Of a DNA stretch of 45,560 bases, positions 20,801 through 23,800 are shown in pieces (the first letter of the stretch is position 1; each line of letters begins with the position of its first letter). Position numbers: made by a program. The stretch comes from Escherichia phage ev243, in the sequence record NC_049955.1, one strand, 5' to 3'.

Positions 20801-23800
20801 CTTCACTGGACGTTACAGAAACAGGCACAGATAGTTTCGGGTTTAATTATGGTCGGTTTGTCGTACAGGATTCGATTGTTGGTACAAGTAAAGCGCATAC
20901 CATTATCGGACTGTATTCGAGTACCGGAGGGGTTGATACTTCAGGGGACGAAAAGCATGTAACTATATCCTGTCGGGTAAAAAGTGAAGTTGATAATATC
21001 GCCGTTCGTATTTTATTTGAACATTATGATGGGGAGGTAAGGACATCAATAGGAGCAGCAAACCTGAACCTTACCACCCGCATAATTAGCAAGACAGGTC
21101 AGACAAGCCGTGTTACAGCAAGGTCTGTTAAGGATGATGCAACTGGCTGGATATTTTTTGAGGCTACATTAAAAGCAGATACAACAGAAAATACGGTTGG
21201 TGGTTTTGTCCAGTATTCTCCGGATACAGGGCAGATGGTTACATCAGGGGATTATCTCGATGTAACCACTCCACAGATTGAGGCTGGTACAGGCGCATCA
21301 TCTTTTATTGTTACGGGGACGGCACCGGCAACGCGGGCAAGCGATATGGTGACAGTCCCAATCAAGAATAACCTTTATAATCTTCCTTTTACGGTTCTTT
21401 GTGAGGTACATAAGAACTGGTATAAAACGCCAAATGCAGCACCGCGTGTTTTTGACACATACCGGCATCAGGCAGATGCGGGGATCGTAATGGGGTTTGG
21501 TTCATCAGGTGGGTACGACGGTTTTCCGTATTGTGATATAGGTGGTTCAGACCGACGAATAAATGAAAATGCCGGGCTGGAAAAAATGCTTATTGGTATG
21601 CGGGTAAAGTCCGAACGGTCCACATGTGTAGTCAGTAACGGTAAGTTAAGCAGCGAAACTAAAACCAAATGGGAATATATCCGGAGTACAGCAACCATTC
21701 GCATTGGTGGACAAACTACAGCAGGATTACGCCATTTATTTGGGCATGTGAGGAATTTTCGTCTCTGGCATAAAGAGCTAACAGATGCGCAGCTTGGGGA
21801 GGTTGTGGAGTGAGAGATTTCACGTTGCGTTTCAGTGATAAAGCAGATTTCAGGGCATTTCTCAGGAAACTTAACTGGGAAGAGGACGAAGAGCTGCAGA
21901 ATGCCGTTCTGGTTGATGAGATTGGTTTTACGTTCAGTGAGTCAGGTGTTTCTGCTGACGGGGAGCCTGAATACACGCGAGACGAAGGGTACTTTGTTAA
22001 TATTCGTCTTCTTGACGATGGCTTTGATGAATCCGTGTTCCGTGAGTGGGTGGTTACACCAGAGCGCCCGCTAAGGGAGTGGTTTTAAGGGGAGCAGATG
22101 GATATCACGTCGATACTTCATGCGCTTTGTGCCGTGGCGGTGCAGGTACTGGCTGGTCTTTTTACCGGAAACTGGGCTTACGGGGCGATAGCCGGTTGTA
22201 CGTTCTTCATTGCGCGTGAACACACCCAGGCAGAATATCGCTGGATTGAAATGTTCGGGCATGGCAAGCGGATTAACATGCCGTGGTGGGGCGGTTTTGA
22301 TCCACGTGCATGGGATGTGGCAAGCCTGATGGATTTTGCTGTGCCGGTGGTGGCGTGTCTGCTGGTCTGGCTGTTGGTTAATCGTGGGTGAAAAAGGTGA
22401 GCAGTATATGCAACGAAGGAGGAAACATCATTGCTGGCGGCATGGAAGGCATGCAGGGTGTTGCTGAACCGTGTTGATACATCAACTGCACCTGATATTG
22501 AGTGGCCTACGAACCCTGTCAGGGAGTAATCATTGGGATTATGCCGCAGCACGTCTTAAGCAAGAACGTGCTGCGGTTGGATGCTATTTTTTCCCTGAAG
22601 CGGAAAACATTACTACAGTACCTTGAACCTTGGTTTTAACATTCTCGAAATGCTCTGAGAGTATATGTGTTAAGCCTTCTTCGGAATCTTTTGTGTTTGA
22701 AAAGATGCCTTTCTGATTGTAAATGCGCATCAGTTTTTGACCGAAGCTATTGTGCACAACTCCATCGCCAAGAATTGTGGCTCCGTATAGAGTTCCATCG
22801 TCAGTTAAGGCCTGCGCCGCATTGCGTATTACACAGCTTTTTGTAGATATATTTCCAGGCAGGCAGTGAAGAAGGTAAAACATGGAAATGGAATCAAATT
22901 GACCATGTAACGCCGCGGGATAAGGTTCAAAAACATCATGGCTAATTTTATGTTTAATTTTTGATTCCCCTGCCCTTGTAGATGCCGCGTTCAGGCTAGC
23001 TTCGTTCAAATCCATTAAAGATATCAGACTACTCTCAGGTACGTGAGTAAGGTAAAACCCAGTTCCAACACCAATATCCAGATGGTTGTTACCTAAATGT
23101 TCCAGAAAGTGTGGAAGAAGGTGTTCCTTTGTAGGACATCCCCATGCAAGCCGATTTGATACTCCCAAAACCCACCAGTCATAAAGCTTTAGGGTAAGTG
23201 GTGTGTAAATTTTAGCCCCATCATCTGTGTTTTTTTTCATTAATTTCACCATGTTATAGTTTTATTTGTGAATTAAATCAATTATGGCGATGAATTACAA
23301 GGGGTTAAATGCTGCCGCAGCATAGCGATATTGAAATAGCCTGGTATGCTTCGATACAGCAGGAGCCGAATGGCTGGAAGACCGTCACCACACAGTTCTA
23401 CATCCAGGAATTCAGTGAGTATATTGCGCCACTGCAGGATGCTGTAGATCTGGAAATCGCAACGGAGGAAGAAAGATCGTTGCTGGAGGCATGGAATAAA
23501 TATCGGGTATTGTTGAATCGAGTTGATACATCAGTAGCTCTGGGTATGAAGCTGTTTGTAACTCATGTTACAGTAACAGTCATTACTATCTCGAAGGTGC
23601 AAAATGTATATTGATTTGATATTTTATAAATTTACTTCGAATCTGGCACGTCAACTTTTGATTAAAGTAATATCAGTTTTCGGCGAAAAAAGGACCGTGT
23701 ACATGAGACGATTTCATACAATAATAACAAAAATATGAATATGCTCCCAATGCAATATATGTTTTGCATTGGGAGCAAATAGCGGAATATTTTGAAATTA

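Follow-up and report, generated by a model that had tools for sequence, protein, structure and literature searches.

A small acidic gene overlapping the side tail fibre gene of Escherichia phage ev243 as a candidate accessory factor of a mobile LamG-like fibre tip

In the genome of Escherichia phage ev243 (sequence record NC_049955.1; the whole stretch of 45,560 nucleotides that was analysed is referred to here as the window), the side tail fibre gene stf (19744–21813, + strand) is followed by a small open reading frame (ORF), orf92 (21810–22088, + strand), which occupies the exact position of lambda tfa but encodes an acidic protein with a sequence unrelated to Tfa. The locus thus raises the question of what such a protein does behind a tail fibre gene. 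Two functions had been offered from the sequence-only reading of the window: a chaperone or partner of the fibre, and a DNA-mimic or anti-defence protein. The comparative context strongly supports the first, and the second was left without support. On balance, we regard orf92 as the probable cognate accessory protein of one type of fibre tip, consisting of a domain similar to the head-spike fibre of a gene transfer agent (GTA) and a basic LamG-like domain, the assembly of which it would aid. We favor this reading, with moderate confidence, because the pairing of the small ORF with this tip is invariant, the two genes overlap in a characteristic geometry, they are transferred as a cassette, and their products are complementary in charge.

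Direct reading of the sequence places the GTG start codon of orf92 at positions 21810–21812 and its TAA stop codon at 22086–22088, which gives a product of 92 amino acids. The end of stf, GAG TGA (stop codon at 21811–21813), shares four nucleotides (GTGA) with the start of orf92, which lies in the −1 frame relative to stf; both the coordinates and the overlap that had been proposed earlier were thus reproduced. A Shine-Dalgarno-like GGGGAGG (21796–21802, + strand) is located within the 3′ end of stf, with its GGAGG ending 7 nt before the GTG, and a GGAG or GGGGA motif is present 6–9 nt 5′ of the small-ORF start in all homologous loci that were inspected. In the relatives of orf92, an ATG codon stands at the same aligned position and opens the sequence M-[KR]-D-[LFI]-x-L-[KR]-F, which by homology makes the GTG the true start. 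A programmed −1 frameshift fusing stf and orf92 was considered and rejected, as the junctions that were read contained no slippery heptamer, no fused product was found, and each junction had its own Shine-Dalgarno sequence. A profile search of 1.84 billion representative proteins found no (Rosetta-stone) fusion of the fibre and orf92. The orf92 product contains 10 Asp and 13 Glu versus 2 Lys and 9 Arg residues, exactly the 23 acidic and 11 basic residues that had been counted approximately before, with a pI of 4.25, a net charge of about −12.5, and a grand average of hydropathy (GRAVY) of −0.61. A hydrophobic segment was looked for in this protein, and none was found.

orf92 is a real gene under purifying selection. 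This is indicated by a full-length match of its product to phrog_1361, annotated as "unknown function" (E = 2.5e-39, residues 1–92 on positions 1–92 of the 92-position profile), by the codon-position bias of variable sites in related loci (25, 27, and 67 at codon positions 1, 2, and 3, respectively), by a median pairwise dN/dS of 0.39, and by the confident fold of an AlphaFold2 (AF2) model described below. The intact 92-codon ORF is kept in 84 of 91 related loci, and the concern that it might not be conserved in related phages is thereby removed. Two overlapping ORFs, 21716–21976 (− strand, 86 codons) and 21835–22074 (+ strand, in another frame, 79 codons), are probably not genes, because the variation by codon position fits the frame of orf92.

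The family has several catalogue identifiers (PHROG 1361, pVOG 7707, and FIGfam FIG00639828); the identical RefSeq protein WP_001204583.1 is a 'hypothetical protein', and homologues in phage records are tagged VOG7707 (tonn and nomine) or FIG00639828 (Lambda_2E9 and 2G7b). Its signature is M-x-D-L-x-L-K-F ... D-x-I-G ... G-Y-[FH]-V-N-x-R ... P-x-R-x-W-x, the last element of which is located at the extreme C-terminus and is the most conserved motif of the family, with R89 and W91 invariant, and every member that was examined is acidic (pI 4.05–4.5). The orf92 protein had no match in Pfam, NCBIfam, or PADLOC, and none in the PDB by sequence. In particular, it did not match PF02413 (Tfa, Caudo_TAP) even at E ≤ 1, nor any tail-fibre-assembly PHROG, whereas in the same run a nearby tfa remnant (23309–23614) matched PF02413 at 9.1e-18. 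The earlier remark that orf92 has no Tfa-like sequence therefore stands. The search of representative proteins returned only 107 relatives; the full-length ones among them are stand-alone proteins of ∼85–110 amino acids, and many other matches are shorter fragments. Long profile matches were to PKD-like repeat proteins that share a hairpin, 'Y-x-I-N-V-R-V-x-D-D-D-G', and were judged spurious.

The structure prediction that had been suggested for orf92 was run with a 58-sequence alignment and gave a confident α/β model (pLDDT 87.3, pTM 0.72). The predicted elements are arranged in the order β-α-α-β-β-β-β-α: strand β1 (residues 2–8), helices α1 (11–20) and α2 (27–32), strands β2–β5 (33–67), and helix α3 (74–80). 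The final ten residues are modelled with low confidence, although they bear the most conserved motif, P-x-R-x-W-x. The model had no convincing structural neighbour, and no DNA-mimic fold was found among its neighbours.

The protein encoded upstream, Stf (689 amino acids; phrog_1419, tail protein), is composed of a PF08400 anchor (1.4e-69), an Ala/Ser-rich shaft, and a C-terminal module, and its RefSeq name is 'prophage tail fiber N-terminal domain-containing protein'. Comparison of fibre ends delimits the module as a mobile unit of ∼430 amino acids (residues 259–689; 20518–21810, + strand) that is 40–62% identical to the fibre ends of Seuratvirus, Tequintavirus, Warwickvirus, Dhillonvirus, and Vequintavirus, the N-termini being unrelated. 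Within the module, residues ∼331–532 (20734–21339, + strand) form a sub-domain that is related to the head-spike fibre of the Rhodobacter gene transfer agent (RcGTA), with matches to NF048003 (GTA_spike_fiber, E = 9.9e-19) and to chain F3 (Rcc01080) of PDB entry 6TB9 (E = 3.2e-16). When a profile of the fused fibre and orf92 alignment was compared with the PDB, 6TB9 was the only clear real match, to the fibre part; the others were mostly GS-linker artefacts, with one marginal match to 9occ_C ('Tail fiber protein gp17', E = 5e-4). The terminal segment of the module (residues ∼519–689; 21298–21810, + strand) is distinguished by its basic charge and a weak LamG/ConA-like signature (PF13385). Stf matches PF13385 (Laminin_G_3) with 17.8 bits (E = 0.0039), below the cut-off of 27.6, with module residues 374–425 aligned to positions 98–149 of the 151-position profile. 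Matches that were also below the threshold were obtained for six of eight divergent members (the best with 26.2 bits), and in five of these six the best stretch was at the extreme C-terminus. The description of this fibre end as LamG-type, which had been given earlier, is thus supported weakly but consistently, and the homologous end of Gp22 of phage IrisVonRoten was termed 'galectin-like' by the authors of the BASEL collection (PMC11990801). A single-sequence AF2 model of the module was unusable for assigning a fold (pLDDT 34); the search with the fibre protein returned only fibres that were 99–100% identical and hence gave no alignment depth.

The association of orf92 with this module extends far beyond ev243. 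With tblastn, the orf92 protein was found in 185 of 50,697 phage records, and the carriers comprise lambdoid phages (including phage 21), Drexlerviridae, Tequintavirus, Epseptimavirus, Queuovirinae, Dhillonvirus, and Vequintavirinae. Homologues are also present in prophages of other Enterobacteriaceae. In every phage record that was opened, the small ORF is located directly behind a tail fibre gene, and six phage lineages with unrelated fibre N-termini share the pair of fibre module and small ORF. In 89 of 90 loci of the first set, and in 80 of 81 loci from environmental viral contigs that carry a small-ORF subfamily only ∼30% identical to orf92, the final ∼430 amino acids of the upstream ORF match a hidden Markov model (HMM) of the fibre module through to its last position. 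The two exceptions do have the module: in IME178 it is separated by a 47-nt spacer, and in the other the fibre gene is frameshifted. In a scan of genome collections, the pairing was found in six of seven loci (in Silvania, Atlantibacter, and Leclercia genomes and in a metagenome-assembled genome of Rhodospirillaceae, where the module match was partial), the seventh being only a 13-residue fragment. The co-occurrence with LamG-type fibres that had been proposed as a check therefore holds in ∼175 loci; the collection as a whole yielded ∼130 unique pairs of fibre and small ORF. The stop and start codons overlap by 4 nt (ATGA/GTGA) or 1 nt (TAATG) in 17 of 17 representative loci and in 79 of 80 pairs of the distant subfamily; the remaining pair consists of ORFs that are 1 nt apart. 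Seen from the fibre, the terminal 172 residues of Stf were found in 203 phage records, compared with 185 for the small ORF, with the same breakdown by taxon. The ev243 allele of orf92 is present in 365 of 5,426 complete Escherichia coli genomes, and diverged alleles, which are commoner still, occur in lambdoid prophages, in phage 21, in T1-, T5-, and rV5-like phages, and in several phages of the BASEL collection. In T5-like phages, the cassette of LamG-type tip and orf92 is an alternative allele to the pb1 type. Several records labelled 'Listeria phage' or 'Campylobacter phage' (e.g. OR848352.1, OR847733.1, MG065654.1, and MG065692.1) contain E. coli-type modules and small ORFs with 50–78% identity; some of them are fragments of 1.8–7.5 kb and others have the size of rV5 or T5 genomes, and their host labels look unreliable.

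Comparison of phages nomine and rV5 shows how the pair moves. Their DNA is ∼91–98% identical on both flanks of the fibre tip; the homology is lost ∼497 codons from the 3′ end of the nomine fibre gene and returns 1 nt past the stop codon of the small ORF. rV5, which has a different fibre tip, contains neither the module nor the small ORF. An environmental contig (L103, 2809–6903) contains two tandem units of fibre module and small ORF, the second of which is the pair with 1-nt spacing and has a fibre of 444 amino acids that is almost the module alone. These sequences show that the fibre tip and the small ORF are exchanged between phages as one cassette. Such strict dependence on the fibre allele contradicts the proposal that the small protein is an anti-defence protein, a DNA mimic, or another host-directed factor that hitch-hikes beside the fibre gene. 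Acidity alone speaks for this proposal (net charge −12 and pI 4.25 for orf92, pI 4.05–4.5 for the family), and it is not discriminating by itself. The gene resides within a late structural operon and overlaps the fibre stop codon, and this holds for virulent phages of the T1, T5, and rV5 types as well; the gene lacks a promoter-like site of its own, and an early location independent of structural genes was not observed. In addition, no match was found to an anti-restriction family (Ocr, ArdA, and similar proteins) or to a DNA-mimic fold. We consider a host-directed role highly improbable.

The charges of the two partners are opposite. The terminal segment of Stf has a pI of 9.2 and a net charge of +5, and the remainder of the module is acidic. 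Across 17 pairs, the terminal fibre segment is basic in all cases (pI 7.9–9.7), the other part of the module is mostly acidic, and the net charge of the small protein ranges from −8 to −18. In a mirror-tree analysis, the divergence of the small ORF was best correlated with that of the nearest 60 fibre residues (Spearman 0.70). Such a correlation cannot separate functional coupling from linkage, and it was used only as evidence against allele-specific recognition. Near-identical small ORFs were found behind terminal segments that differ by >30% in 76 of 163 comparisons; any recognition would therefore involve conserved core features of the tip rather than features of individual alleles. This makes a general assembly factor more likely than a cap fitted to single alleles or an inhibitor of the immunity type. 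The latter would be a small acidic protein that neutralizes a terminal fibre domain harmful to the cell that makes it, for instance if that domain binds or breaks down glycan precursors, in analogy to CdiA and colicin cassettes. Tight allele-specific co-variation with the upstream C-terminal domain, as expected of a CdiI-like protein, was not observed, and we judge this idea very unlikely.

The same observations also temper the assembly-factor reading itself. Tight physical linkage alone would yield much of the co-inheritance signal, and the mirror-tree correlation is ambiguous because linkage predicts it as well; the frequent combination of near-identical small ORFs with divergent tips adds to this side of the balance. 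Binding of orf92 to the fibre and a chaperone activity are inferred from comparative context, and the virion proteome of phage AKFV33, which covered four large gel bands, cannot bear on a 10-kDa protein (PMC3326045).

With these points taken into account, the way in which orf92 would assist the fibre tip can be outlined as follows. The ribosome that finishes the C-terminus of the fibre would re-initiate on orf92, so that the small protein would be made beside the new fibre end and in proportion to the fibre. This small, soluble protein would then bind the core of the terminal domain, which is conserved and positively charged; the contacts would probably be made by the acidic surface of the small protein and by the conserved P-x-R-x-W motif of its C-terminal tail. 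This binding may help the tip to fold, to trimerise, or to remain soluble, a job that is performed elsewhere by Tfa, by gp38/gp57A, or by intramolecular chaperone domains. For the ev243 fibre, both an intact Tfa and an intramolecular chaperone domain are missing: the tfa genes are only remnants, and PF13884 (Peptidase_S74, the intramolecular chaperone) had no match in either stf or orf92. Much of this evidence can also be read in another way, namely that the small protein is a stoichiometric component of the virion, as are gp38 of T2 and Tfa of Mu, or a removable cap that masks the lectin-like tip until after release. Translational coupling implies output in proportion to the fibre, the charges of the protein and the terminal domain are complementary, the conserved yet flexible C-terminal tail resembles a docking peptide, and there is precedent for chaperones that stay attached (PMC10579305). 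The protein has not been detected by virion proteomics, but the sole data set, that of AKFV33, could not have shown a protein of this size. The occurrence of near-identical small ORFs with divergent terminal segments argues against a cap that is fitted to a variable receptor-binding site. Overall, a virion component or cap seems to us a less probable explanation than assistance in assembly.

The assembly role proposed for orf92 can be compared with known fibre-folding systems. Like Tfa, gpG, and gpU of lambda, P2, and Mu (PF02413), orf92 is located directly downstream of a side tail fibre gene and is exchanged with its distal part. Tfa acts on the C-terminal tip of the fibre and in Mu stays bound to it. 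The 'transient chaperone caps' gp27 of Alteromonas phage V22 and gp9 of phage A5 are similar to orf92 in that, together with their cognate upstream fibre, they make up a host-recognition module that phages of unrelated morphology have in common, and they may remain weakly attached to the tip (PMC10579305). Their structures are close to the helical intramolecular chaperone domains found in T5 and K1F fibres, with a β-hairpin 'tentacle', whereas the topology of the orf92 model is different, and none of these Alteromonas, T5, or K1F chaperone structures is among the listed neighbours of the model. Furthermore, the function of V22 gp27 and A5 gp9 was tested by experiment, whereas that of orf92 is proposed from the comparison of genes. 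In T5 pb1, DT57C LtfA/LtfB, and the K1F endosialidase (PF13884), a C-terminal element that is made last nucleates trimerisation of the tip. Separately encoded and translationally coupled, orf92 may be the nearest free-standing equivalent of this domain, which is itself covalently attached and removed by autoproteolysis; the papers on DT57C LtfA/LtfB concern this different, self-cleaving type of fibre. T4 gp57A and gp38 are small, separately encoded factors that are required for the folding of trimeric fibre tips, and the likeness of orf92 to them was compared only via the absence of a Pfam match. gp57A is also small and acidic; it is all-helical, serves several fibres, and is not known to be encoded beside them. 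Taken together, orf92 may take the place of a Tfa-type assembly protein to which neither its sequence nor its fold is related, which would not be surprising in principle. A broader proposal, which we put forward as tentative and on the whole doubtful, is that phrog_1361 constitutes a structurally new class of fibre partners, in which the invariant P-x-R-x-W tail and an acidic face dock on the basic LamG-like tip. Its members would serve as general 'plug-and-play' subunits for folding or capping and so render the tip portable between siphoviruses, myoviruses, and prophages.

The genes that follow the small ORF differ between phages: a membrane protein in lambdoids, a second fibre in many virulent phages, and baseplate-type genes elsewhere. 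As the downstream gene varies, the functional link is with the upstream fibre tip. The second fibres of unrelated phages (loci L002, 4267–5433; L003, 4289–6058; L004, 4292–4966; L007, 4292–5329; L008, 4270–4566; and L172, 4315–6057) share only a short N-terminal peptide, T-x-I-P-x-D-I-T-K-L-K (with similarity of up to ∼70 amino acids), which is presumably a docking element for the LamG-type proximal fibre. The second fibre of VogelGryff is annotated as a 'putative lateral tail fiber chaperone', and its sequence matches genes of JLBYU40 and FFH1 that are annotated as 'tail fiber protein'. The presence of such fibres suggests a further role for the small protein, that of an adaptor bridging the proximal LamG-type fibre and the downstream distal fibre. 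In 53 loci, the gene after the small ORF belongs to a family of longer proteins that includes the fibres with this peptide, and the N-terminus that they have in common was checked in six phages (JLBYU40, FFH1, VogelGryff, tonn, KarlBarth, and 2G7b). In IrisVonRoten, the small gene is flanked by the genes of two published fibres, the proximal Gp22 and the T-shaped distal Gp24. However, ev243 and 81 of 90 lambdoid loci have no distal fibre and their small ORF is still intact and conserved, rV5-like phages and many environmental contigs carry unrelated downstream genes, and a published AlphaFold-Multimer model connects Gp22 to Gp24 without the small protein (PMC11990801). An adaptor function is thus unlikely.

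In ev243, the gene downstream of orf92 is orf97 (22098–22391, + strand), which encodes a predicted membrane protein of 97 amino acids (phrog_1443, function unknown) and starts 9 nt after orf92, with its own GGGGAG. A gene of this type is found 13–19 nt (in the measure used by our script) after the small ORF in 81 of 90 lambdoid prophage loci and in no virulent phage that was checked; in Lambda_2G7b, the 97-aa membrane protein comes after an extra distal fibre of 345 amino acids. This distribution would be compatible with a possible lysogen-specific role, for example superinfection exclusion encoded beside receptor-binding genes. rV5 gp29, a 'membrane protein' encoded between two fibre genes, was compared with orf97 as a candidate relative and found to be unrelated. 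Upstream, a strong hairpin resembling an intrinsic terminator (19712–19733, + strand) separates lom from stf and lies 11 nt ahead of the stf start; its 8-bp stem contains 7 GC pairs and leads into a T run. A search of the + strand from this hairpin to the end of orf97 revealed no sigma-70-like site. Because of the upstream hairpin and the lack of such a site, stf, orf92, and orf97 seem to belong to the antiterminated late transcript and not to form an autonomous 'moron'. Given the position of the hairpin, the fibre genes would need antiterminated late transcription for their expression.

On the right side of the locus, a 3′ remnant of tfa (22410–22529, + strand; coordinates transferred from the identical sequence in strain HM670, where RefSeq lists a 'tail fiber assembly protein, incomplete, missing N-terminus') appears to be a recombination scar that marks the right edge of the cassette. 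It is followed by a gene for a class I SAM-dependent methyltransferase (22584–23252, − strand) and by the second tfa fragment (23309–23614, + strand; PF02413, 9e-18). The two truncated tfa fragments with the methyltransferase gene between them look like the scar of a recombination in which the original stf tip and tfa were replaced and a cargo gene came in. Further cargo (23798–26422, − strand), comprising a TAP-like α/β hydrolase of 494 amino acids and the outer-membrane protease OmpT (Omptin, 2.8e-130), sits between the tail-fibre region and the integrase gene within an apparently complete lambdoid genome. The window corresponds to a complete lambdoid phage genome in vegetative order: terminase (gpA-type large subunit, 708–2633), tail genes, J (15518–19015), lom (19086–19685), stf, the small ORFs, cargo, integrase (26905–28068, − strand), and repressor (cI-like, 35377–36090, − strand).

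The sequence-only reading had also called the presumed function previously undescribed. The family itself is already catalogued as being of unknown function and is common, but no paper assigning a function to it was found under PHROG 1361, pVOG 7707, or FIG00639828, or with search terms for a small acidic protein downstream of a fibre or for LamG tail fibres. Published work on homologous loci (ltpA/ltpB of AKFV33 and Gp22/Gp24 of IrisVonRoten) treats the flanking fibres and passes over the small gene (PMC3326045, PMC11990801). The IrisVonRoten homologue bas32_0023 (locus L173, 4501–4779) is annotated as 'tail fiber protein' in its GenBank record, without comment; this phage depends on its lateral fibres for infection of O16-restored K-12. 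The VogelGryff homologue is bas25_0023. In the 2025 BASEL paper, the proximal fibre is called 'Gp23' once and 'Gp22' elsewhere, which makes the status of the small gene there ambiguous (PMC11990801).

orf92 thus represents a clean, testable, and practically relevant annotation gap for a very common fibre module. If the phage can do without the small protein, one would have to explain why it is so invariably coupled to the fibre. If it is needed for the tip, it would provide a fourth, structurally unrelated solution to fibre folding, beside Tfa-type proteins, gp57A/gp38, and intramolecular chaperones. Should its requirement lie in assembly of the tip, any modelling or recombinant expression of these lateral fibres would have to include the small gene, as would fibre swaps meant to re-target phages or phage-derived delivery particles, and if the 'plug-and-play' proposal is true, engineered transplants of this common E. 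coli fibre tip would fail without the small protein.

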